A model generated the notes under the pieces. That model was not told the DNA's origin and did not search any database. It was given only the letters and a program-made list of their open reading frames with translations. 38,430 nucleotides of DNA from a virus (Duplodnaviria > Heunggongvirae > Uroviricota > Caudoviricetes), in IMG/VR virus record IMGVR_UViG_2778261428_000003, positions 1 through 38,430 of that record, one strand, 5' to 3'. Positions 2,784 to 38,430 of this stretch are shown here, piece after piece. The translations under genes and the position numbers were made by a program. How positions within the stretch are numbered: position 1 is the stretch's first letter; each line of letters begins with the position of its first letter.

Positions 2784-3368
2784 TTACTCCGGATATTTAA
2801 AAATTACGTAGGTATGCGAAGGACAGAGTTTGTTAAGCACACACTCGACAACGGTGTCGCCCCAGATACGCAGTGCGGAATCACAGGGATCGCCACATGT
2901 CATCCAGGTGGTGTTGGTGGCGGCTGGCATGTTGACCTGCCAGTAATACCGCCATTCCGGCGCATTCACAGCGTCAGTGCAGGCTGATGAGCAGGTGAAC
3001 GTGCTTTTGTCGTATCGCGTGATGGTAGCGTCTGATCTACCCAGGGCAGCAAGCTGTGCAAGGTAAAAATCCTCATTGATGCCGCCCGCCAGGTTAACCT
3101 TCGCATCCAGTCGTTGCTGACGCTGGCGAAGGGTCTGTGTCCCTGCGGGAATACATTCATCCGGCAGGCTGCACAGACGCTCCCAGCGGTTTATCAGTTC
3201 GGTGGTGGTGCGCGGATCCAGCTCCCGCATCAGGGCATCCGCACGCTGATGAACACGAGTTAATGACGGTGCCGCACCGGCAATCGCCGGATCGCTGGCT
3301 GACCACGCCGGACCGGGCGGCAGCAGTGCCGACAACAGACGGATGTAATCATCGTTTGTCACGTCCAT
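2784..3368 (-). CDS. ymfQ: DUF2313 family tail protein (Mu gp48-like, e14 YmfQ-like), 194 aa
   Basis: Length and position between baseplate J and tail fibre; recognised from translation; recalled similarity to e14 YmfQ. Confidence 0.65.
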
Positions 3369-4417
3369 GAAATCGTACCCAGAACCGCCAGTTCATTTTT
3401 TGCAATGGAGATATTGTCCGCCGGAGCAAGCAACTGATGGCTGTATTCCCCGTTCGCACCGGAAATCGCTTCACTGATACGCGATACCTTCAGCTCTCCC
3501 TGCGGATAACCATCACGCAGCAGGAATGAACGCAACTCTGCGGTAATGGCAGCCCGTATTTCCGGTGTGTCCGGCGTCACGCGGATATGAAAATCCACCG
3601 TATGTGCCACCGGCCTGAACACATACAAATCAGAGCCTGCCACCGGGGCCAATGGCCCGATATGTTGTCTTGCCGCCGTTTCCGTTGATTCTTCAGGAAT
3701 GGGATTAATCAGGTCACTACTGGCAATCATCACACCGACAGTCCCCGTTCCCATCCAGTGACGATATGCCCATGCGCGGGTAATGCCGGGCACTTCTTTA
3801 GCCCAGACGACATAGTCCCCGTCAGCCCCGCCCTGAGGCGTCCAGTAATACCGCTCAATGATGCGGGCGCGCCACGTTTCCAGCTCTTCAGTATCAAATC
3901 CGCCTGTCAGGGTGTCAGCCACACCGGAAGACGGCAGCCCATTCACCGGCGTGACCAGGATTAATGCCGTACCGTCGTCAGCGTTACCGACCGCACCTGC
4001 ACTTGAGCAGGCGATCGGCACGCGCAGGACACCACCGGAGCTGGTTGCATCGGCAGTTGCCGTGTACTGAACCAGGTCATCGCGCTGAATAACACTCCCG
4101 GCGGTCACCTTCAGGCCATCACTGACACCTTCCCAGCGCATATATCCGCTGGCAGCCGTGGCCCCCTTGCGCGGACACCGTTTCATCGCAGCATGTCGCG
4201 CCAGCCAGGACTCATCGCACAGGTCAGGCAGCATGTTCAATGCCAGATAATCGATGTACCCGTAAACCGTATGCAGCGCCGCCGCATACACCTTTGCCCG
4301 CACGTCTTCATCCATGCGCCGGAGCGTGTCGCTGACGTCCAGCCTGGCGAATAAATCGTTACGGAGCATACTGATATTTTCTGCCAGCGTCGGGCGCTGA
4401 AATTCACTGTCCGCCAT
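3359..4417 (-). CDS. Baseplate J-like protein (Mu gp47-like)
   Basis: 352 aa, position in Mu-type baseplate block, operon packing with overlaps. Confidence 0.75.
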
Positions 4418-4832
4418 GCGTTATCGCACTCCACAGATCATCAAAAGAAATCATTACCGGTCCGTCACGACGCCAGAGAGTGATACTGTTACCCAGTTCA
4501 TTAATCCCGGTGCGGCGGATATCCAGATCAATACGGGACACCACGCCGTCATCAATCATCCATTGCAGGCATTCGCGGATATACCCCCTTACCGTCTGCA
4601 CCAGCTGATTGGTCAGTTTGCTGCGCTGAAGCAGCCACAGTCGGGAGCCGTAACGGTCATTCTGTACCGCAGGCCAGGTATCCCCCCACCATCCCATCGG
4701 GACGTCGGCGTTGTCATCAGGCTCCGCCCGCCGCCAGGTAAACAGGGAAATCACCACGGCGCGGGTCAGCGGATCCAGCGGTGCGCTGGCGCAGGTGCGT
4801 TTACCGTTCACCGTCAGCCACAGTTCCATCAT
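4404..4832 (-). CDS. Baseplate protein, GP46 family (Mu gp46-like)
   Basis: 142 aa, conserved position between gpV-like and gpJ-like genes. Confidence 0.6.
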   Translation of the reverse strand: MMELWLTVNGKRTCASAPLDPLTRAVVISLFTWRRAEPDDNADVPMGWWGDTWPAVQNDRYGSRLWLLQRSKLTNQLVQTVRGYIRECLQWMIDDGVVSRIDLDIRRTGINELGNSITLWRRDGPVMISFDDLWSAITHGGQ

Positions 4833-5377
4833 GCCTCCATCGCTTTATCAGGTTTGTCGGTGTTACTGCCCTGACCGTTCTCTCTGTGACGATGCCCGTT
4901 ATAGGCAAGCCGCATCGCTGACATGGTGGTGCCGCTGGAGTCGCACAGGTCTTTCACCTGTCCTGTCACTTCCAGGTCCATTTCAAAACGTGCTTTAGGT
5001 GAATTGCGAAACGTGATCGTTTTACCTGCACCGTCCACCACGATCCCCTCCCGGGTCAGCGTCACGGACTGCCCCTGATCGTCATAGACCGCCACCTCAC
5101 CCGTCTGCAGCCCTTTCAGGCGGTAGCGCCGGTCCGACACCGTAACAACCACCGCATGAGAACGGTCGCCATCCGGAAACAACACCACCGCTTCCGCACC
5201 GCTGTTTGCCCTTGCGGTAAAACCGTAGGGTTCAAGATGTTCAACCCCGGCTTTGGGTTCACCGGCAATCAGGGACACATCCACGGTCTGACATTTCGTG
5301 GCGGCACTGATGCTTTTCACCACTGCCCGCCCAATCAGGCCGAGGAGTTGTCGCTGCATGGCTTCAATCGTCCTCAT
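4829..5377 (-). CDS. Baseplate assembly protein V / spike (Mu gp45-like)
   Basis: 182 aa, gpV-like sequence, conserved order. Confidence 0.65.
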   Translation of the reverse strand: MRTIEAMQRQLLGLIGRAVVKSISAATKCQTVDVSLIAGEPKAGVEHLEPYGFTARANSGAEAVVLFPDGDRSHAVVVTVSDRRYRLKGLQTGEVAVYDDQGQSVTLTREGIVVDGAGKTITFRNSPKARFEMDLEVTGQVKDLCDSSGTTMSAMRLAYNGHRHRENGQGSNTDKPDKAMEA

Positions 5378-6456
5378 CAGAACGGGTCCTCCTGTACTCT
5401 GGCTTTTTTCTTTTTCCGCGCGCCGGGGGCTTCGGGTTCAGGCAGATAAGCATCAGGCGGGCCGACACGGATTTCCGTCAGGGTGCCGTTCTGGTCCTGA
5501 GTAAACGTGACTTCCGAGACAAGCAGTTCGGTATTGTCGAAACCACAGACCGGATCGAAGACAATCACCCGCTGGTTGGGTTGCCACAGCGTACCGTTAC
5601 CCTGTCGCCAGCCCTGCACCACATAGGTGGTTTCATCCGTCCGCGCCGCCCGTTGCCGGGCTTCAAAGTCCGCACGGGCAATACAGCCTGCCCCCGTAGC
5701 CTGCCCTGTCTGCCTGATATACATCGGACGGTAACGGGCAATAAATGCGTCTTCTGTGCGGGCCCGCAGCGCGGTGGTGGTGGCCTCACCGAAATCATCG
5801 TCATTTCCGGCACGCTGCCCCGCCACCTGGTAAACTGAAAACCGCTCCCGGATACTCTTCTCCGTATCACAGGAAAGGATGTTTTCCCCAAGTACCAGCG
5901 CGGTATGTGCCCGCGTTGAGCCAATACCGCCAATCACCAGCCTGCCATGCGGGTCGTCGTAAGCCAGTGCCTGCTGCTGACCGAGTATTTTGTTGATTAC
6001 CTCAATCACCGTTTCACCGTGATCAGGCTGGACATCCGGAATAACACCCGACGGCGCACCGTTGTTCACCACCTCAATGCCGAAAGGCGCAGCAAGCGCC
6101 TGCGCAATCTGTACCAGCGATCGTCCGTTAAACTGTGTCGATTCGGCTGCACAGTCAATCAGGTCAGCGGTCAGACTGCGTCCAGCAATACCGGTGCTGA
6201 CCGAACGGGCATCGTAACGAACGGGCGTCGCCTCCACCCAGCCGGTGATCACCAGCTCATCACCAATCAGAACTTCCACTTTTGAACCGTTTTTAATACG
6301 CGGCTGAAGCGTGGTGATACCCTCATCTCCCGGCCACTGGCGGGTGATCTCCACACTGAAATCCCGTGCCAGCCGTTCAATACCGGCACCGATGCGCACC
6401 GATGTCCAGCCATTCCACTCCCGGCCATTTACCCGTAGCGTGACGTTATCGTTCAT
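5377..6456 (-). CDS. Tail protein, phage late control D / baseplate hub (Mu gp44, P2 gpD-like)
   Basis: 359 aa, position after DNA circulation gene, Lys-rich C-terminus. Confidence 0.65.
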   Translation of the reverse strand: MNDNVTLRVNGREWNGWTSVRIGAGIERLARDFSVEITRQWPGDEGITTLQPRIKNGSKVEVLIGDELVITGWVEATPVRYDARSVSTGIAGRSLTADLIDCAAESTQFNGRSLVQIAQALAAPFGIEVVNNGAPSGVIPDVQPDHGETVIEVINKILGQQQALAYDDPHGRLVIGGIGSTRAHTALVLGENILSCDTEKSIRERFSVYQVAGQRAGNDDDFGEATTTALRARTEDAFIARYRPMYIRQTGQATGAGCIARADFEARQRAARTDETTYVVQGWRQGNGTLWQPNQRVIVFDPVCGFDNTELLVSEVTFTQDQNGTLTEIRVGPPDAYLPEPEAPGARKKKKARVQEDPF

Positions 6457-7781
6457 TGCACTGGCACCTTCAGAGGGATCACCGGCACAAAGCCGGGATG
6501 TGTAATGGCATTGCGCCGGATAATGTCCGCGTCACGCGCCGCGTTATCAAACCAGGTCGCCGCCAGCACCAGCGCGGGTAAAACCTCATCCGGCGTACGC
6601 TGAATGATCCGCGCAGACTGTTCAAGGCGCGTGTTGATATCCGCATTCAGATCTGCTTTCACCCGGCGCAGCGCCAGAAACAGCACATCACTGGTTGTAC
6701 GGGACAACTCCTTATCAATTGCCGTATTCAGTGTGTCGCGAATGTCGGTCAGCTCTTCCCACGTTGGCAGGTCAACCGTGTTTTTCACCGCCGGTGCATT
6801 GTTCAGTGCCGGATGCGTGACGGAAGGCCAGCCGGTGCTCTGCGCGGGTGTTGTTGACTGCCCCACTGCGGCATTCTGCATCACCGCGGAAGTTGTTGGC
6901 GCAGGCAATCGGGTAACGGCATACGCCGCTTCGCTGATTGCAGTCGTACGAAGGGTGCTGGCAACCACGTTACGCTGCTGCGTCGCTGTGGCGGTGGTTT
7001 TACTATCCGTTTTCCAGACACCGCGCGGTTGCAGATCGCTGCCGAGGCTGACACCGGAAAGCGTTTTGATCATGGTGACCAGGTCGCTGGCGTTACCATA
7101 AAGGCGCTTCCCGGTACGCCACATTTTCTGCACCTGCTCAACGAAATTTTTGCCTGACGATGGCGGCGGCAGAAGTACCGAGATATCCCCCTGCAACAGC
7201 CTGGCGGCATCCGATACAGCAGAATCCACCACTTTCATCGCATCAGAAACATACCCCAGCATTATGCTGGCATTACCGATAACGTCGTTCTGCACAAAAT
7301 CTGCCACGCCATCGATACTGAAACCACTGAAACTGTCACTGATGCAGTCATCCAGTGCAGAACAGGATGACATCAGCGTCTGCGCCGTCGCCGCACCTGA
7401 TGTGGGGTAAGAGAGTTCTCCCGCTTCGACAAACTTCAGGTCAAAGCGGACAATACGCCCTTCACTCTTCGATGTGCTGACCCGAACCTCCCCGTCAACA
7501 CAGACTTTCAGCTCACCGTATGTCGGATGGACAAGCGTGCCGGGACCGGGTTTATTCAGCGCGTCAATCAGGCGATCGCGCTGGTCAAAGCAGTCATCTC
7601 CCACCACATAAGCCGTGATGGACGGGCGGAAAGTGACTTTTCCCAGATCTTCGGTATAGGGTTTGTCGCGGTTCGGGTATTCGTGCGTTTCCACACGACG
7701 ACCGGTTCCCGCACTTTCTTCTTCAACCTTAAACGGCACACCGCGAAATGACGCGTCCTGAAGTCTGTCTTTCCACGTCAT
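6453..7781 (-). CDS. DNA circulation protein (Mu gp43-like)
   Basis: Start reassigned to ATG at 7781 (MTWKDRLQDASFRGVPF...) with GGAG 8 nt upstream; the ORF-track N-terminal extension covers a hairpin and is unlikely to be coding. Confidence 0.7.
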   Translation of the reverse strand: MTWKDRLQDASFRGVPFKVEEESAGTGRRVETHEYPNRDKPYTEDLGKVTFRPSITAYVVGDDCFDQRDRLIDALNKPGPGTLVHPTYGELKVCVDGEVRVSTSKSEGRIVRFDLKFVEAGELSYPTSGAATAQTLMSSCSALDDCISDSFSGFSIDGVADFVQNDVIGNASIMLGYVSDAMKVVDSAVSDAARLLQGDISVLLPPPSSGKNFVEQVQKMWRTGKRLYGNASDLVTMIKTLSGVSLGSDLQPRGVWKTDSKTTATATQQRNVVASTLRTTAISEAAYAVTRLPAPTTSAVMQNAAVGQSTTPAQSTGWPSVTHPALNNAPAVKNTVDLPTWEELTDIRDTLNTAIDKELSRTTSDVLFLALRRVKADLNADINTRLEQSARIIQRTPDEVLPALVLAATWFDNAARDADIIRRNAITHPGFVPVIPLKVPVQ

Positions 7782-21953: not shown

Positions 21954-22102
21954 TTGTAGTTATCTCTCACCTCGCTGATACAGCAGGTGCAAATTGAGGG
22001 AACATCATGTACCGCAAATCAGAAGCGGAAACGTCAAAGAAGCCGAGCCAATGGATAACTGCGGAATAGGCCAGGACCAACGAATCCCCAGCCCCAGAAA
22101 CG

Positions 22103-22127
22103 ACAAAACCCGCTCGACGGCGGGTTT
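22103..22127 (-). terminator. Terminator-like hairpin upstream of holin (tR'-like candidate)
   Basis: Minus strand aaacccgc-cgtcga-gcgggttt followed by a T-rich stretch. Confidence 0.35.
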
Positions 22128-22240
22128 AAGCTGTGTGGCGAAGTAACCACTCTTAACACGATACAATAGTTTTTGCGTACGCGTTAGTGGTTATGTAAAC
22201 TTTCTCCATATAAAAACAGCAAAGAAGCGGATATTTTGAA

Positions 22241-23269
22241 ATGGCTACACTGGACGCATTCAGTAGAGTAATAACTCATCATACTATTACGATCGATACA
22301 CAATACCGTACACAGAAAATTGATGATAGCATCAGATCGAACTGTGTTTGCCCAGTACCAACAATGCGTGAACTTGCTTCTAAAATAGTACATTGTAAAG
22401 CAATGATGCACAGTTATGAAAAAGGAGACTTAGTTTTAACTTTACAAGATGTAATATTCTTATCAAACAGAGCCGATAAAAAACCCAGCCATCTTGGTCT
22501 TTTAATTAATGCTGTAGATAAAAATGGAAGCACTACTGTATTAAAAAACATTAATACAGATGTTCGCACCGAAATATCACCAAAACATGAGGAAGGTGAA
22601 GGTTACGAAGTTTCTTCTCATATGATTATTTCTCTAGACGGAAACATGCGAACATATGACATGAGTTTTATGCCAATACCAGGAGTTTCCACAGCAAAAA
22701 TAAATGGTTTCCTGAATAAAGTTCTCTTTAACGTAGCCAAAGATAATGAAGATATCTTTTCATGTAACACTTTAACAAATGAAGTATCAAGTTTAACAAA
22801 GAAAAAAATAAAAGTATTATACAAGCCAGTCTTTGATATATCTGGAAAGTTAGATGAAGATTTGTTCAATAAAATAAATAAAGAAGGACTTTCTGATGTC
22901 GTTTTGGTAAAGAATGAATACAGAACTATTAATGCGCCAGATGTTAACGCGGCTATTATTCCTAAAGAAAGTACTTTACGCTTAGTACCAAACCATGGCC
23001 CCAACAATGTCCTTGGATGGATAAAATCTGTCTCAAACTTCTTTAAAGAAGATAAAAATGGAGGTTATGACTTAATAAAAATAAAATTCAAAGAGCCAGA
23101 GACAGGATTCACAAGACAAGTTGACCTTCAAACTTCAAATGTAAGGCTGGATGGGCTGGAAAAAACATTTATCAAAAAGAGTGTAATAAATGGTTTTTCT
23201 TCGCGCTTAAAGGATTCTTATGATAGTATTAACATGGAGTTTGTGAATAAGATTATCGAGGTCATGTGA
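22241..23269 (+). CDS. Hypothetical 342-aa soluble protein, component A of a candidate exclusion/abortive-infection cassette
   Basis: Long ORF in markedly AT-rich DNA, opposite strand to the late operon; no recognised catalytic motif; weak local resemblance to RexA (…PGVSTAKINGFL… vs RexA …GPTTSDLTDFL…). Confidence 0.6.
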   Translation: MATLDAFSRVITHHTITIDTQYRTQKIDDSIRSNCVCPVPTMRELASKIVHCKAMMHSYEKGDLVLTLQDVIFLSNRADKKPSHLGLLINAVDKNGSTTVLKNINTDVRTEISPKHEEGEGYEVSSHMIISLDGNMRTYDMSFMPIPGVSTAKINGFLNKVLFNVAKDNEDIFSCNTLTNEVSSLTKKKIKVLYKPVFDISGKLDEDLFNKINKEGLSDVVLVKNEYRTINAPDVNAAIIPKESTLRLVPNHGPNNVLGWIKSVSNFFKEDKNGGYDLIKIKFKEPETGFTRQVDLQTSNVRLDGLEKTFIKKSVINGFSSRLKDSYDSINMEFVNKIIEVM

Positions 23270-23276
23270 GGCTAAT

Positions 23277-23852
23277 ATGATTAGTATATTTTCACATTTA
23301 TTTAGACCGTTTGGTTACCTTTTCATTAAGGGAATTAGTGGTAAGTGCGCATACGATTTTTATGCACCTGCCGGGCTTGCTGTGATTTCTTTTTTTTACT
23401 TTTATTTATTTAAAATACCTACATCAGACCTACTAAAAGATGGCGGCTTTATTAAGTCTATATCTGGATTTGTATCAAATCTGCCAGGTTTTTATATAGC
23501 AGCTCTTGCAGCAATAGCCACTTTCAACAGAGAACAAATTGACTACCCTCTGATAGGAACTAATGGCACTCCTTTTATTAAAATTACACGAACAAAAGAA
23601 AATGGTAGAATTGTTGACACTCAAGAGAAACTTACCAGAAGATTATTTCTGTGCATGTTATTTTCATTTTTAACTGCCCTCAGCATATGCATAGTGATTT
23701 TCAACGCTTTTATCACACCACTAATAAACATACTGAATAATGATATAGCAAACTGGTGCTATATCATTATCTTTTTATTCCTTACATGGCAAATGCTTGT
23801 TTCAACATTTTTTGGACTATACTATCTTGGTGATAGGATTCACATTAATTAA
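23277..23852 (+). CDS. Hypothetical 191-aa four-TM inner-membrane protein, component B
   Basis: Four hydrophobic segments (about aa 29-45, 62-83, 123-149, 160-184); GAGG Shine-Dalgarno; 7-nt gap from component A. Confidence 0.65.
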   Translation: MISIFSHLFRPFGYLFIKGISGKCAYDFYAPAGLAVISFFYFYLFKIPTSDLLKDGGFIKSISGFVSNLPGFYIAALAAIATFNREQIDYPLIGTNGTPFIKITRTKENGRIVDTQEKLTRRLFLCMLFSFLTALSICIVIFNAFITPLINILNNDIANWCYIIIFLFLTWQMLVSTFFGLYYLGDRIHIN

Positions 23853-24207
23853 CTACCATAATGGGGTTTATAGTTATTATTACACCGCTGATAAACCCCA
23901 TGGCAGTCTGCAATTCCTTCCTAATTGTGCCATCTGAACATCTTCTCTTCTTGGCAATAGTGCGTAATGAGATACCAATAACAAAGTGAGCTATGATCAG
24001 CTCATATTCCTCTGGTTTATACTTTCGCAACCGAGCCACACAACCGTCTATCATGATGCCTTCATCATCATCACACTGGAGACGTGACTTTTTACCGTGT
24101 GGTAAAAGTCCCTTGAAACCAGCCGCTATCGGCTGCCAGTCCACACCACTATTTTCTGCTGCAGCCCATGCTCCCCAGCGGTCCAATACTTCATACATAT
24201 CACGCAT
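23845..24207 (-). CDS. Q: Late antiterminator Q (phage 82/21 Q-like)
   Basis: MRDMYEVLDRWGAWAAAENSGVDW...CDDDEGIMIDGCVARL... matches the Q82-type antiterminator pattern; start set at internal Met. Confidence 0.8.
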   Translation of the reverse strand: MRDMYEVLDRWGAWAAAENSGVDWQPIAAGFKGLLPHGKKSRLQCDDDEGIMIDGCVARLRKYKPEEYELIIAHFVIGISLRTIAKKRRCSDGTIRKELQTAMGFISGVIITINPIMVVN

Positions 24208-33187: not shown

Positions 33188-33736
33188 GTGGAGAACAATA
33201 TGTCATTTATTAAAACTTTTTCCGGGAAGCATTTTTATTATGACAGGATAAATAAAGACGACATCGTTATTAACGATATCGCGGTTTCCCTTTCAAATAT
33301 CTGTCGCTTTGCAGGACATCTTTCACACTTCTACAGCGTCGCCCAACATGCGGTGCTTTGCAGCCAGCTGGTACCGCAGGAATTTGCTTTTGAAGCGTTA
33401 ATGCATGATGCAACAGAAGCATATTGCCAGGACATCCCCGCACCACTGAAACGCCTTCTTCCTGACTATAAACGGATGGAAGAAAAAATAGACGTCGTCA
33501 TCCGTGAGAAATACGGATTACCCCCGGTTATGAGCACGTCCGTGAAATATGCCGATCTCATCATGCTGGCAACCGAACGCCGCGATCTCGGGCTTGATGA
33601 TGGCTCTTTCTGGCCTGTACTGGAAGGTATCCCGGCGACAGAGATGTTCAAAGTTATTCCACTGTCACCAGGCCATGCCTACGGGATGTTTATGGAACGT
33701 TTTAACGAGTTATCGGAGTTACGCAAATGCGCATGA
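33188..33736 (+). CDS. yfdR: HD-domain phosphohydrolase (YfdR-like)
   Basis: HD motif ...ALMHDATEAY...; 182 aa. Confidence 0.75.
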   Translation: MENNMSFIKTFSGKHFYYDRINKDDIVINDIAVSLSNICRFAGHLSHFYSVAQHAVLCSQLVPQEFAFEALMHDATEAYCQDIPAPLKRLLPDYKRMEEKIDVVIREKYGLPPVMSTSVKYADLIMLATERRDLGLDDGSFWPVLEGIPATEMFKVIPLSPGHAYGMFMERFNELSELRKCA

Positions 33737-34089: not shown

Positions 34090-34709
34090 TGACCACATTT
34101 ACCGATAAAGAACTGATTAAAGAAATCAAAGAGCGTATCAGCAGCCTAGAGGTTCGAGACGATATTGAGCGCCGTGCTTATGAAATTGCTCTGGCATCGC
34201 TGGAAGAGGAGCCGGTGGCATGGCTACATTCAGACAATGGCTTAGGTATTCCAGCAATAACCAGGAGTAAAAACATTGCTGACAGTTGGTTATCAAAGGG
34301 CTGGTATGTTCAGCCGCTATATATAGCCAAGCCAGTGCCGGTGGTGCCAGATGCTCGTCCGTCTTTAAATAATGGCATAGTCGGTTTTGATGAAGGCTGG
34401 AACGCCTGCCGCGCCACCATGCTTCACGGTGTCAAACCTGTAAGCCAGACTTACAAGTTGAACAAGCTGTCTGGCAACTCTCCGGTAACTCCGGATGGTT
34501 GGATAAGCTGTAGTGAGCGAATGCCGAACGATAAACAATATGTTTGGTGTTGGGGTAAGTCTTACGGCTGGACTGAGTGCGATACCTTCGAAGGGTATTA
34601 CGATTGTTCGAGAAACAAATGGTGGGCAGTTACTGACAATGGGGAAGAACCGGCATCGAAAGTAACCCACTGGATGCCGCTACCGGAACCGACGCAGGAG
34701 GTGAAGTAA
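34089..34709 (+). CDS. DUF551-domain prophage protein (YfdT-like)
   Basis: Trp-rich C-terminus ending ...HWMPLPEP typical of DUF551. Confidence 0.55.
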   Translation: MTTFTDKELIKEIKERISSLEVRDDIERRAYEIALASLEEEPVAWLHSDNGLGIPAITRSKNIADSWLSKGWYVQPLYIAKPVPVVPDARPSLNNGIVGFDEGWNACRATMLHGVKPVSQTYKLNKLSGNSPVTPDGWISCSERMPNDKQYVWCWGKSYGWTECDTFEGYYDCSRNKWWAVTDNGEEPASKVTHWMPLPEPTQEVK

Positions 34710-34903
34710 TGAACAACTTAATGACAACTAAACAAGTCGCCGACTTCTGTGGCGTTTCAGTATCGACAGTTCTTCGCTGGAACAGCGTAAACCGGAGAAC
34801 TGGCCAGAAATACAGACCTGATTTTCCAGATCCTGATATTAAATCATGCCCAAATAAATGGGCGTCACGCAAGATTTACAGGTTTGCAGGAGTTATTGAA
34901 TGA
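34709..34903 (+). CDS. Excisionase / AlpA-like HTH regulator
   Basis: 64 aa, TTKQVADFCGVSVSTVLRW helix-turn-helix, upstream of integrase. Confidence 0.6.
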   Translation: MNNLMTTKQVADFCGVSVSTVLRWNSVNRRTGQKYRPDFPDPDIKSCPNKWASRKIYRFAGVIE

Positions 34904-35443
34904 CGTATGTGAACAGACACGTCTATGGCACGGTCAGCGTCTGTCTGAGCGATACAGGCACGGACGTTGCTATCCACAAGCATTAATTATCAGGAAACTG
35001 GGACCGCTCCCCAAGCATGATGTATTGAAACGAAGACATTTACACAATGATAGAAAAAATACTAAAATAATGATTCAACTCAAAGAGTTGATGTACATAA
35101 AATGCCTCACCGGCATAGGTGAACATTTTCATGGGTGGGGAAAAACATGATGTGGACCACACTTCCCCCTCTAAAAAGAGGGGAAAGAGTATGGTTTTGT
35201 TGTACACTAAAGGCCATATGGTTTTTTATTATGTTTGGATAAGATAAATGAATGTAATAGCATTTAATGAAATAGAATCTAGCATCGCCGCCAATGATCA
35301 GGTTGATTCTATCTGCATTGAATTAACAACATTTAATCAAGATAATGTCATTTCATTTGAAAGTAAAAAGAAAAATAAATAAATTCTTGATGCATTTTTT
35401 GAAATAATAAATACTGATATAGTTTTCGACTAGGTAATTAGCA

Positions 35444-37039
35444 ATGGCTGAAGCAGCAAAAAAAACTCCACAAAAGCTGAATGAAAAAAAAGGCTCAACA
35501 TCAGCATCATCACTTGAGATTGTGAATTCACGACAATCAAAAGATATTTATCTTGGATTGTGTGGATATGTTGGATGTGGCATGAGAACGATAAACAAAA
35601 TTATCGAAGAGATATCCAAAGAATGGGGGTATAATGTTGTACACATCCGCATAAGTGCGCTTATGGAAAACCCATTATATTTTGAGCCAGCAGCACTGGA
35701 GGTATCCGAAAGCACACAAGTTAATAGACATTTAAAACTCCAGGATATTGCCAATAAGCTTCGTAAACATTACAAAAAAAATGAGTTGCTTGCAGAAGCT
35801 GCTATTGCAGCAATCGCAGCAGAGAAAAATAATATTGATTATAATAATGATGAATATAAAGGTACTGTCTTCATCATTGATCAATTCAAAAGGCCGGAAG
35901 AAATAGAGTTATTCAGAGTTATATATCAGCATAATTTCTATTTATTAGGAGTTTTGCGCGATTTAGATTACCGAATTCCGAATCTCATTGCTGACGAATC
36001 GACAAAGGACGACCTTCATTTAATTATCAATATTGATAATAAATCCTCTGATCCGTATGGACAAAGAACCGGGGAAACCATTCTTGATTCAGATTTTTTT
36101 ATTAAAAATAACTTCAGCCAAAAAAGTGAATTAAAGAAGAAGATTGATCGGTTTTTCGGTCTTATTCATGGCAAAAATGGTTTAACACCAACTTTTAACG
36201 AGAAAGGTATGTATGCTGCCTTTTCAACATCATTACAATCAGCTTGTTTATCACGTCAAGTAGGGGCTGCACTGTTTGATGATGAAGGGAATTTGCTTGC
36301 CGTGGGTAAGAACGACGTACCTAAAGCTGGTGGCGGGTTGTATAGCAGTGATGATTTTGATAACGATCATCGATGCGTTCACAAAAGTGGTAAGTGTTAT
36401 AATGATGCAAACAAGCTAAAAATTAAAGACCGTATAAAAAGCATATTATCAACCGAAGTAAGAAATGTATTAGGTATTTCCGCAGGACAAACTGTTGCCG
36501 ATATTAATATAACACGACTTCTAAACAAATTAGATAATATTGCAGAAGGCATTTACAAAGACAGCAAAATATCAAGTGTAATGGAGTATTCCAGATCAAT
36601 TCATGCTGAAATGGACGTCATTACATCAATGGCTAGAAAACAAAACGGCGATACTAAAGATAAAATTCTTTTTACGACAACCTATCCCTGCCACAACTGT
36701 GCAAGGCATATTGTCGCAGCTGGAATAAAAAAAGTAGTATATATAGAGCCATTTGATAAAAGCCTTGCTCTTGATCTGCATAATGATGCAATAACAAAGA
36801 ACGAAGAATCATCCAAAGTAATATTTTGTGATTTTGAGGGGGTATCACCCCGCCGCTACCATAAATTTTTCAGACCAACGGATGAACGTAAAGATGATAA
36901 AACAGGGACTGCAAATAAATTTAATGCTCGCTACAAAAATCATATAGATGTTCAATATCTTGATGATTATAGAAAGTATGAGACTGTTGTAGCTAAGAAA
37001 TTTATAAACGAGATTGCTAAACCAGAGTCTCAGCCATAA
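35444..37039 (+). CDS. avcD: AvcD-like antiphage deaminase: N-terminal P-loop-like domain fused to C-terminal cytidine/dCMP deaminase domain
   Basis: Zinc-dependent deaminase signature H-A-E (aa 387-389, SIHAEMDVI) and P-C-x-x-C (aa 415-419, TYPCHNCARH); Gly-rich loop GLCGYVGCGMRT at aa 38-49; 531 aa; AT-rich; between xis and int. Confidence 0.8.
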   Translation: MAEAAKKTPQKLNEKKGSTSASSLEIVNSRQSKDIYLGLCGYVGCGMRTINKIIEEISKEWGYNVVHIRISALMENPLYFEPAALEVSESTQVNRHLKLQDIANKLRKHYKKNELLAEAAIAAIAAEKNNIDYNNDEYKGTVFIIDQFKRPEEIELFRVIYQHNFYLLGVLRDLDYRIPNLIADESTKDDLHLIINIDNKSSDPYGQRTGETILDSDFFIKNNFSQKSELKKKIDRFFGLIHGKNGLTPTFNEKGMYAAFSTSLQSACLSRQVGAALFDDEGNLLAVGKNDVPKAGGGLYSSDDFDNDHRCVHKSGKCYNDANKLKIKDRIKSILSTEVRNVLGISAGQTVADINITRLLNKLDNIAEGIYKDSKISSVMEYSRSIHAEMDVITSMARKQNGDTKDKILFTTTYPCHNCARHIVAAGIKKVVYIEPFDKSLALDLHNDAITKNEESSKVIFCDFEGVSPRRYHKFFRPTDERKDDKTGTANKFNARYKNHIDVQYLDDYRKYETVVAKKFINEIAKPESQP

Positions 37040-37045
37040 CTGTTT

Positions 37046-37086
37046 CCACTCCTTATTTCTGTAAGGATAAGGAGTGGTATTTTTAT
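37046..37086 (+). terminator. Rho-independent terminator after the deaminase gene
   Basis: ccactcctta ... taaggagtgg 10-bp stem followed by TATTTTTAT. Confidence 0.6.
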
Positions 37087-37191
37087 AAGTATAATGACTG
37101 CCTCTTCATAAATCAGCAAATCGAAATATCAGCAACCAGTTAATTATAATCCAAGAATCATTACTATTTTCTTACTCTGTATGTCCATTCA

Positions 37192-38430
37192 TTATTCAAT
37201 AGGCTGTCTGTTGGAACCTAAATTAGTGTAAGTAAGAATCGAATCAACCCTATCCCACCATGCCTGATAGGCTTTACGCTGTTCTTCTAGATAATCACTC
37301 TTATCATAAACTTGCCATACCCCTGGCAGTTTATGACCGAGCATTATTTCAGCAATATGAGGCGCAGTAAGATCAGAAAAGTTTGTTCGTGCTGTTCGTC
37401 TCAAATCATGAAGAGACCAATGAGGAAATTGATACCCCAAACGCCGCCATGCGTACTGCATTAAATTGTAAGGCAGCGACTGCAATGATGTCCGACCAAC
37501 TGGCTCCTTGCTTCCTTCCTTGGTAAAAAGCATATCGGAACCGTTGTTCATAGAGATAACGTATTTTATAAGCTCTTCAACCGGTTCAATAATGGGGCGC
37601 TTTAGCGGTTCGCCTGTTATATCACCTGTCTTATGTCGTTCTGGCGGTACAGTCCATACCTTATTAATGAAATCAAAATCATCCACCCTGGCAGTAATCA
37701 GCTCTGAACTACGACAGCCGAAATGCAGCAATAGTTTAATGAAGGCCCGGTATTTGGGAACCATTCGAGAACCATCGATCGCAGCATAAAGAATTTTAAT
37801 TTCATCGTGTGTCAGAAACCGTTTCTTCTGACCTTTACGGATATCCATATCTTTACCCGTGATGTCCGACAGCGGGCGAGTTTCAATAAACTTTCGCTTA
37901 TACGCCCAGACATGGGCCTGCTTTGCGTTAATTAGCAATCGGTCTGCTATTGCCGGAGTCTTAGTGCTAAGAGGCTCCAGGACCTCTAACCAATCATGCA
38001 ATGTAGCTGCATCATGAGGGATACTCCCGATTTTAGAGAACAGATGCAGTTCAAATGAGCGGAGTATCTGCTCAGAACCTTTTTTATTTTTTACACAATA
38101 TGCTTCATACCAGGCACGGATCACAGACTCTACCGTCATGGCTTCAGTAGCTTTGCGTTTTTCTGCCTGCCTGACCAATCGTGGATTGCGGTTTGACTCA
38201 AGTTCACCACGAAGACGGATAACTTCTTCTCTGGCCTCTTTTAATCCAGTTGCCGGGTAAGTTCCGATATCAAGTCGCTCGCCTTTCCCTGCCCATTGAT
38301 AACGATATTGGAACACTACGCGACCTTTCGGTGATACTCTGACAGACAGACCATCACGATCTGATTTAACCAAAACCTTATCGCGTTCCTTTCCAACGAC
38401 TGAACGCAACCACGCATCAGACAGCGCCAT
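37192..38430 (-). CDS. int: Tyrosine integrase, P4-type (N-terminal arm-binding DUF4102-like domain)
   Basis: 412 aa; C-terminal HDLRRT ... LGH ... Y catalytic motifs; ATG is the last three bases of the window. Confidence 0.9.
   Translation of the reverse strand: MALSDAWLRSVVGKERDKVLVKSDRDGLSVRVSPKGRVVFQYRYQWAGKGERLDIGTYPATGLKEAREEVIRLRGELESNRNPRLVRQAEKRKATEAMTVESVIRAWYEAYCVKNKKGSEQILRSFELHLFSKIGSIPHDAATLHDWLEVLEPLSTKTPAIADRLLINAKQAHVWAYKRKFIETRPLSDITGKDMDIRKGQKKRFLTHDEIKILYAAIDGSRMVPKYRAFIKLLLHFGCRSSELITARVDDFDFINKVWTVPPERHKTGDITGEPLKRPIIEPVEELIKYVISMNNGSDMLFTKEGSKEPVGRTSLQSLPYNLMQYAWRRLGYQFPHWSLHDLRRTARTNFSDLTAPHIAEIMLGHKLPGVWQVYDKSDYLEEQRKAYQAWWDRVDSILTYTNLGSNRQPIE

Follow-up and report, generated by a model that had tools for sequence, protein, structure and literature searches.

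A 38,430-nt stretch of DNA from a tailed virus of the Caudoviricetes (IMG/VR record IMGVR_UViG_2778261428_000003, positions 1 to 38,430, hereafter the window) was analysed around the gene at 35444–37039, for which an initial annotation had proposed an anti-phage deaminase of the AvcD type. Judged by profile matches and alignments, the 531-aa product is clearly a member of the characterised AvcD/anti-phage dCTP deaminase family, and the segment 35166–37087 is very probably a self-contained avcID-type nucleotide-depletion defence module, carried as exchangeable cargo between the excisionase (xis) and integrase (int) genes of an SfI/SfII-like temperate prophage of E. coli. The upstream partner of AvcD, a conserved small open reading frame (ORF) and RNA element at 35248–35433 with a strain-specific nonsense change, had been overlooked. 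The gene belongs to a known family, and RefSeq already lists the identical protein under this name (WP_001589610.1 in E. coli SF4-1); the assignment is therefore correct, not new.

The ORF listing and the translation reproduced the annotated 531-aa frame with its HAE and PCxxC signatures exactly, the motifs reading G38-L-C-G-Y-V-G-C-G-M-R-T49, H387-A-E389 and P415-C-H-N-C419. The protein matched the NCBIfam equivalog NF041025 (“anti-phage dCTP deaminase”) with 464.5 bits against a cutoff of 400 (E = 3e-139), over residues 35–483 and profile positions 2–437 of 437, and the PADLOC profile dCTPase (PDLC02373) with E = 2.7e-164 over residues 10–529; Pfam dCMP_cyt_deam_1 was placed on residues 252–434. 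More than 5,600 relatives were retrieved from a set of 5.8 billion proteins. In an alignment of 34 family sequences, C40, G41, G44, D146, Q147, H387, A388, E389, P415, C416 and C419 were invariant, and the columns of T49 (S/T) and C45 varied.

The proposed AvcD-type fusion of two domains, covered end to end by the NF041025 and dCTPase profiles and in keeping with the length above 350 aa expected of the family, was also recovered in a predicted structure. In an AlphaFold2 (AF2) model built from 34 homologues (pLDDT 82.6, pTM 0.76), compared with the PDB by Foldseek, the modelled C-terminal domain resembled dCMP deaminases (2w4l, 2hvw, 1vq2, 7fh4) and the modelled N-terminal domain resembled P-loop kinases, namely dephospho-CoA kinase (2if2), adenylate-kinase-related proteins (3lw7/3h0k) and UMP-CMP kinase (7e9v). 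Because the N-terminal domain matches P-loop nucleotide kinases, the earlier description of a Gly-rich, P-loop-like N-terminus is right at the level of the fold; it does not hold as a canonical Walker A motif, the lysine of GK[ST] being absent and the family motif reading CGxxGxG-x-x-[ST]. HAE and PCHNC were aligned to the zinc sites of the T4, human and S. mutans dCMP deaminases. No full-length solved structure was found for AvcD; its deaminase core alone aligned, to the dCMP deaminases of T4, human, S. mutans and PBCV-1.

Over the full length, direct alignment gave 61% identity to AvcD of enterotoxigenic E. coli (ETEC) H10407, 46% to that of V. cholerae and 45% to that of V. parahaemolyticus, and this comparison, which had been named as a check on the annotation, came out in its favour. 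Deamination of dCTP and dCMP and depletion of deoxycytidine (dC) pools have been demonstrated for the ETEC and Vibrio enzymes (bioRxiv 10.1101/2021.03.31.437871; PMC10511110), and E. coli was protected from phages by the ETEC and V. parahaemolyticus systems (bioRxiv 10.1101/2021.03.31.437871; PMC10511110). S52, D162/Q163, E384 and C411/C414 of V. cholerae AvcD correspond to T49, D146/Q147, E389 and C416/C419 in the window, where the counterpart of every residue whose mutation abolished activity is kept (P-loop S/T, the Walker-B-like DQ, the HAE glutamate and the zinc cysteines). In V. cholerae AvcD the exchange S52K abolished activity (bioRxiv 10.1101/2021.03.31.437871). Tal et al. mutated a G/C pair of the nucleotide-binding motif and two zinc cysteines (bioRxiv 10.1101/2021.04.26.441389); the former pair would correspond to G44/C45 of the window motif.

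The ETEC protein that Hsueh et al. (2022) tested is encoded on plasmid p58 (WP_000951932.1/WP_096882215.1), has 532 aa as against 531 in the window and shares the P-loop-like, DQ, HAE and PCHNC motifs; the Vibrio AvcID systems (DcdV-DifV; V. cholerae VSP-1 and V. parahaemolyticus) likewise combine the two domains. The defensive dCTP deaminase of E. coli AW1.7 and U09 (Tal et al. 2022), termed 'dCTPase' in PADLOC and 'dCTPdeaminase' in DefenseFinder, is a kinase-plus-deaminase fusion in which both domains are needed for dCTP depletion (bioRxiv 10.1101/2021.04.26.441389); the AW1.7 protein measures 576 aa, and its likeness to the window AvcD was assessed through the PADLOC profile match. It was cloned as a single gene with its native promoter, and no antitoxin was named (bioRxiv 10.1101/2021.04.26.441389). 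Defence systems of the dGTPase/SAMHD1 type follow the same logic of starving one dNTP (bioRxiv 10.1101/2021.04.26.441389), but with the unrelated chemistry and fold of HD-domain triphosphohydrolases, and are functional analogues only.

Other deaminase families were considered and rejected. Housekeeping ComEB (TIGR02571), a single-domain protein of ~150 aa, scored 40.3 bits against a cutoff of 219.45, the window protein having 531 aa and an extra domain, and TadA scored far under its cutoff. A match to the polymorphic-toxin deaminase MafB19-deam (31.7 bits) covered only 51 residues (385–435) nested within the stronger dCMP_cyt_deam_1 match, and Bd3614-deam stayed under its cutoff as a short sub-match nested in the same zinc site; no trafficking domains of polymorphic toxins were found in the Pfam search of AvcD.

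Upstream of avcD and on the same strand lies an element in the position of AvcI, ancestrally a small ORF of 61 codons. In the window the frame is listed as 35248–35382 with 44 codons and a TAA at 35380–35382; the intact 186-nt ORF is present in GB089, SF4-1, Budvicia, Morganella, E. kobei, Pantoea, ETEC p58 and others, and a 61-aa hypothetical protein is called at this place by PGAP or Prodigal in GB089 and many others. A same-strand small ORF was found upstream of avcD in every gammaproteobacterial-type relative examined (at least 38% identity, upstream sequence available), including the tested loci of ETEC p58, V. cholerae and V. parahaemolyticus. In V. cholerae, AvcI (DifV) is encoded directly before avcD in the same orientation; the two are co-transcribed, AvcI is 20–60 times more abundant, and it inhibits AvcD post-translationally. 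Its decay upon transcription shut-off frees AvcD (PMC10511110).

In size, strand and position the window element equals the small ORF of ETEC H10407, which Hsueh et al. regarded as candidate AvcI/DifV (bioRxiv 10.1101/2021.03.31.437871), and its 186 nt fall within the ~170–280 nt expected of AvcI. The ETEC frame, also of 186 nt, ends 12 nt before avcD as against 10 nt here and is intact, whereas the window copy has the nonsense codon; the two peptides can be aligned (window …ETINSFDKILKKEIILD against ETEC …EILDAFFEIINTDIVFD), and the upstream regions have diverged too far for blastn. The ETEC system resides on a 5.8-kb mobilisable plasmid, the window copy on a prophage. ETEC AvcI inhibits only its cognate AvcD (bioRxiv 10.1101/2021.03.31.437871), and cross-regulation with the window copy is therefore not expected. 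At the Vibrio loci the same-strand element lies in an intergenic gap of ~500 nt, with a small ORF of 56 or 67 aa and a spacing of ~80 nt to avcD in contrast to 10 nt in the window, within a genomic island beside VspR and CBASS instead of a prophage. The Vibrio small ORFs end in …AKQLGW and those of the window class in …IVFD; small ORFs of other AvcD clades end in …L(G/D/T/K/N)W with a similar central NV(V/I)xF motif. The similarity is marginal (hhalign profile-profile P = 0.0018, probability 15%), and a single family for the …IVFD and …LGW small ORFs was not claimed. Upstream of avcID, both Vibrio loci carry a regulator of the VspR family and a small helix-turn-helix (HTH) gene (1122–1643 and 1104–1628 of the V. 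cholerae and V. parahaemolyticus loci); the enterobacterial modules are without these neighbours.

Candidate transcription signals were noted at both ends of the module. About 40 nt upstream of the small ORF, a −10-like hexamer TACACT (TAGAAT or TAAAAT in relatives) lies in a block GTAGTA[C/G/A]A[C/A]T that was kept in 6 of 8 diverged loci in an alignment and is still present immediately behind an IS1 insertion in strain OkiPb01701; it was not called by a simple promoter scan and is regarded as the putative module promoter. A GC-rich hairpin at the 5' edge was kept in Budvicia and Morganella, occurred in a diverged form in the E. kobei locus, and may insulate or terminate transcription. At the other end the gene has, as annotated, its own intrinsic terminator, whose hairpin and T-run (37046–37077) begin 7 nt past the avcD stop codon and which lies within the block common to the Budvicia and Morganella loci; terminator-like sites in the scanned region numbered 7 where 1.5 were expected. 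Between the small ORF and avcD, an invariant GA(T/C)TAGG was found in the eight-locus alignment; because the TAG stop of the small ORF here overlaps the Shine–Dalgarno region of avcD, translational coupling of the two frames is suggested.

The element was examined both as an RNA and as a coding sequence. RNAalifold returned a consensus hairpin within the small ORF in which 87.7% of cells were paired over the 8 diverged loci, as against 34–43% with the partners slid, and compensatory changes fell on 9 of its 16 pairs (4.4 ± 1.3 in shuffles, 0 of 500 shuffles reaching this value), figures that come from 8 sequences only and from a structure derived from the same alignment. A globally structured small RNA was dropped from consideration on the folding of the whole upstream region (z = +1.39 against shuffles), and the claim is limited to this one local covarying hairpin.

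The small peptides form 29 clusters, nearly all of 61 aa, and the 61-codon frame is open in ~25 distinct clusters at 90% identity from Escherichia, Serratia, Budvicia, Yersinia, Klebsiella, Phytobacter, Proteus, Salmonella, Morganella, Enterobacter and Cronobacter. The chance of such an open frame at 26–35% GC is 0.001–0.006, and the other two frames carry 3–14 stops. Minimum substitutions by codon position numbered 34/32/66 (chi-square p = 2.6e-4), with the same bias in the V. cholerae and V. parahaemolyticus elements (17/7/28). Pairwise ratios of nonsynonymous to synonymous substitution (dN/dS) were mostly 0.05–0.4 in frame (0.68 for the closest pair, Budvicia–Morganella) and scattered around 1 off frame. 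By these measures the small frame appears to be under purifying selection and looks protein-coding. The peptide matched no Pfam or NCBIfam family, its profile found only 2 clusters (50% identity) among 1.84 billion representatives, and by these searches the family is a narrow, fast-evolving one; AF2 prediction of the 61-aa peptide alone was uninformative (pLDDT 49) save for a predicted C-terminal helix.

AvcI has been published as non-coding, and AvcID is classed as a type III toxin–antitoxin (TA) system (PMC10511110). In V. cholerae, AvcI versions with a stop codon or without a ribosome-binding site (RBS) still inhibit AvcD (bioRxiv 10.1101/2021.03.31.437871); the RNA being sufficient there, the selection pattern of the small frame is unexplained by the published model, and our literature search found no paper on coding selection in the AvcI frame. 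The proposal that the AvcI locus is also a genuine small-protein gene, that AvcID is a dual-function (RNA plus peptide) regulator–toxin pair and that the window holds a natural separation-of-function allele may be right or wrong with about equal probability on the present comparisons. Should the locus encode a selected peptide in addition to the RNA, the type III TA model in its current form would be incomplete; the source strain of the window offers a ready-made allele for testing the role of the AvcI peptide.

The nonsense change was traced to a single base. Across 34600–38430 the window differs from E. coli SF4-1 at one position, T35380 for G, and of the complete E. coli genomes with the module, 49 of 49 carry the GAA allele and 0 of 49 the TAA allele. 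Only one NCBI assembly, GCA_002512515.1 (contig NLZC01000008.1), was found to encode the 44-aa product, and it is 100% identical to the window. A 35-nt query for the TAA allele returned 'No match', probably through low-complexity masking of AAATAAATAAAT, and was not used as evidence. The truncation removes the 17 most conserved residues, the C-terminal predicted helix, of the 61-aa peptide, and leaves avcD and the RNA hairpin at 35262–35323 untouched. A natural nonsense allele beside an intact avcD would be compatible with function as RNA. T35380 would probably be neutral if the RNA alone counts; should the peptide or the coupling count, the T35380 strain would differ in how AvcD is regulated or expressed. 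A single-base assembly error is also possible. Frameshifted variants of the small ORF (P0132, P0149) occur partly in assemblies in which avcD is also fragmented at homopolymers, and these were rejected as independent evidence, being likely sequencing artefacts save for two contigs with intact avcD.

The position of the module was defined by comparison with related phages. As annotated, the gene lies in an AT-rich island (GC 0.34–0.36 across 35001–37000, 0.45–0.59 in most of the window) and in the xis–int cargo position: an excisionase-like HTH gene, in the position that the annotated excisionase orf34 has in phage cdtI, borders it on the left (its Pfam HTH_17 and HTH_23 matches stayed under cutoff) and the integrase on the right. 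In blastn, homology to the cdtI and Stx2c phages ends at 34899–34905 and restarts at 37211–37230; the cargo is therefore placed at ~34906–37210. In the same slot cdtI carries a 710-aa protein (orf33, 2912–5044 of the fetched locus) that matched PADLOC BovA (Borvo) with E = 2e-241, and Stx2c-converting phages carry a 517-aa ORF (3031–4584 of the fetched locus) with no Pfam or PADLOC match, a candidate novel cargo or defence gene. On this comparison the xis–int gap is a swappable slot in the SfI/SfII-like phage group. The structural half of the window shares 97–98% identity with the phages SfI, SfII and SfIV of Shigella and with E. coli myoviruses, and the early region resembles CPS-53 and phage cdtI (yfdP–yfdS).

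The deaminase block recurs at 74–86% nucleotide identity in unrelated contexts, among them the int region of another prophage, plasmids and integrative and conjugative elements (ICEs). Shared blocks span 35029–37183 in Budvicia, 35114–37096 in Morganella and 35167–37027 in an E. kobei prophage; from these limits the portable unit runs from the GC-rich hairpin (35166–35183) to the terminator (37046–37087). Further copies were found on conjugative plasmids or ICEs and on small plasmids, and AvcD relatives on 55 IMG/VR viral contigs; a contig scan with the single protein gave only 2 loci, and the diversity was drawn from contigs encoding relatives and from IMG/VR. The 3.8-kb segment 34600–38430 is present at ≥98% identity in 41 of 5,426 complete E. 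coli genomes, in which the gene is labelled “anti-phage dCTP deaminase”, lies between a DUF551 gene and the integrase, and belongs to a carrier prophage inserted next to yjjG.

By analogy with the characterised systems, the module would work as follows. AvcD would be made constitutively and kept inactive by an abundant, unstable transcript of the element at 35248–35433. An infecting phage that stops host transcription would let this upstream RNA decay, by which AvcD would be freed; the zinc deaminase, whose fused kinase-like domain would be needed for activity, would convert dCTP and dCMP to dUTP and dUMP, dC pools would collapse, and phage DNA replication would be starved, with defective particles as the result. 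The lysogen, and hence the prophage, would be protected. An SfI/SfII-like prophage would in this way arm its E. coli host with a nucleotide-depletion defence, which is expected biology, and the xis–int gap read as an exchangeable defence slot is useful for annotation and for predicting phage susceptibility.

Several observations weigh against this scheme. The region upstream of avcD (35215–35446) folds no better than shuffles and matches no Rfam family, a search of 34600–37300 at E up to 1 giving two sub-threshold chance matches. No terminator was found in the scan between the small ORF and avcD, and this, together with the 10-nt gap, would be hard to square with a separate abundant AvcI RNA. 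The substitution pattern of the small frame, apparently that of a coding sequence, is unexplained by a pure non-coding-RNA model. T35380 could impair regulation in the source strain. The cognate-only action of ETEC AvcI means by analogy that details in the window orthologue may differ.

Two rival readings concern the role of the module as a whole. That the gene is an ordinary enzyme of nucleotide metabolism, either a lytic-cycle phage dCMP deaminase that boosts dTTP or a housekeeping enzyme of the ComEB/Dcd type, is highly improbable. In favour of such an enzyme, its deaminase domain is closest in sequence and fold to the T4, cyanophage and cellular dCMP deaminases, and the same prophage has a gene for a YfdR-type 5'-deoxynucleotidase 1.7 kb upstream. 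The stand-alone dCMP deaminases (T4 Cd 1vq2, human DCTD 2w4l, S. mutans 2hvw, PBCV-1 bi-DCD 7fh4) and the vertebrate dCTP deaminase CDADC1 (9hfq) do share the zinc-deaminase fold and HAE/PCxxC, but they align to about the C-terminal third only, at 14–20% identity, have neither the P-loop kinase-like domain nor the antitoxin element, and play a metabolic, not a defensive, role. The low ComEB score, the fused kinase-like domain and the small upstream element as hallmarks of the defence family, the placement of this foreign, AT-rich cargo, which has a putative promoter and a terminator of its own, in the lysogeny region and not the replication module, and the movement of the gene among prophages, plasmids and ICEs all stand against a metabolic role. 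Somewhat less improbable, but still very unlikely, is that the module mainly serves as a TA addiction cassette that stabilises prophage, plasmid or ICE, with defence incidental or absent. The type III TA classification of AvcID (PMC10511110), the occurrence of close relatives on ICEs and, next to RelE/ParE toxins, on small mobilisable plasmids, and a position adjoining the integrase, the part lost last at excision, would fit such a cassette. Against it, phage resistance was conferred by every tested member of the family, from ETEC, Vibrio and E. coli AW1.7/U09 (PMC10511110; bioRxiv 10.1101/2021.04.26.441389), the sister phage cdtI holds the Borvo defence candidate in the same slot, a second candidate defence pair lies elsewhere in the same prophage, and overexpression of AvcD is reportedly bacteriostatic and not lethal (PMC10511110).

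The third alternative concerns the window copy: the 61-aa peptide would be needed besides the RNA, T35380 would leave AvcD mis-regulated (leaky and costly, or poorly translated for want of coupling), and defence would be weakened or abolished. This is unlikely, though the best placed of the three. Purifying selection on the frame, loss of the most conserved segment, absence of the TAA allele from the complete genomes and the overlap of the intact stop with the conserved GATTAGG ribosome-binding region of avcD speak for it. The inhibition of AvcD by V. cholerae elements with a stop codon or without an RBS argues the other way, as do the fully intact avcD of the window and the possibility of an assembly error at 35380; moreover, two other assemblies pair a frameshifted small ORF with an intact avcD, and loss of the peptide is therefore at least viable. 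Against these alternatives we retain the reading of 35166–37087 as an avcID-type defence module, the features of which are listed in Table 1.

Table 1 Features of the avcID-type module and its borders (positions in the window)
Feature	Position	Strand	Remarks
Excisionase-like HTH gene	34709–34903	+	64 aa; left border of the slot; colinear with excisionase orf34 of cdtI
Variable xis–int cargo island	34906–37210		blastn breakpoints against cdtI and Stx2c phage; GC 0.34–0.40
GC-rich hairpin	35166–35183	+	CCCCTCT-AAAA-AGAGGGG; 5' edge of the portable module
−10-like hexamer, putative promoter	35203–35208	+	TACACT
AvcI-position element	35248–35433	+	186 nt; ancestrally 61 codons; ends 10 nt before the avcD ATG
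Conserved RNA hairpin in the small ORF	35262–35323	+	arms 35262–35279 and 35305–35323; RNAalifold consensus of 8 diverged loci
Strain-specific G>T	35380	+	small-ORF codon 45, GAA to TAA
avcD, anti-phage dCTP deaminase gene	35444–37039	+	ATG start; 531 aa; ORF listing
P-loop-like motif	35555–35590	+	GLCGYVGCGMRT (aa 38–49); C40, G41 and G44 invariant, G46 nearly so
Deaminase active site	36602–36700	+	HAE 36602–36610, PCHNC 36686–36700; invariant in the family alignment
Predicted AvcD domains			~aa 30–245 N-terminal P-loop kinase-like; ~aa 250–480 C-terminal zinc dCMP-type deaminase
Intrinsic terminator	37046–37087	+	13-bp stem, 6-nt loop, T-run; between convergent avcD and int
Tyrosine integrase gene	37192–38430	−	412 aa; right border; Pfam Phage_integrase, Arm-DNA-bind_3, Phage_int_M; RefSeq annotation

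Within the first 50 nt of avcD, two A8 tracts were noted (35458–35465 and 35484–35491). The first is A7 in eight OkiPb E. coli genomes and one IMG/VR contig, which shifts the frame; avcD is therefore annotated there as an N-terminally truncated product of 462 or 505 aa without the P-loop. The A7 variant could reflect inactivation by slipped-strand mispairing, an on/off switch or a sequencing error. In several bovine E. coli genomes, IS1 and IS421 flank or interrupt the block of small ORF and avcD, and in OkiPb strains (OkiPb01701, 3288–6940 of the fetched locus) the block lies away from the prophage and adjoins idnO, which suggests relocation of the module by insertion sequence (IS) elements.

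Among the neighbouring genes, the YfdR-type 5'-deoxynucleotidase is encoded at 33188–33736 on the plus strand and is a conserved gene of the CPS-53/cdtI type. In some GenBank records the cdtI-type BovA homologue is labelled 'valyl-tRNA synthetase'. A second low-GC island of the window (~22000–24000, GC 0.32–0.36) holds adjacent ORFs of 342 and 191 aa at 22241–23852 on the plus strand. No Pfam domains were found in either; they matched a candidate defence pair in PADLOC, PDC-M53A with E = 2e-31 and PDC-M53B with E = 1.7e-54. By these matches the prophage appears to hold further defence cargo besides the avcID-type module.

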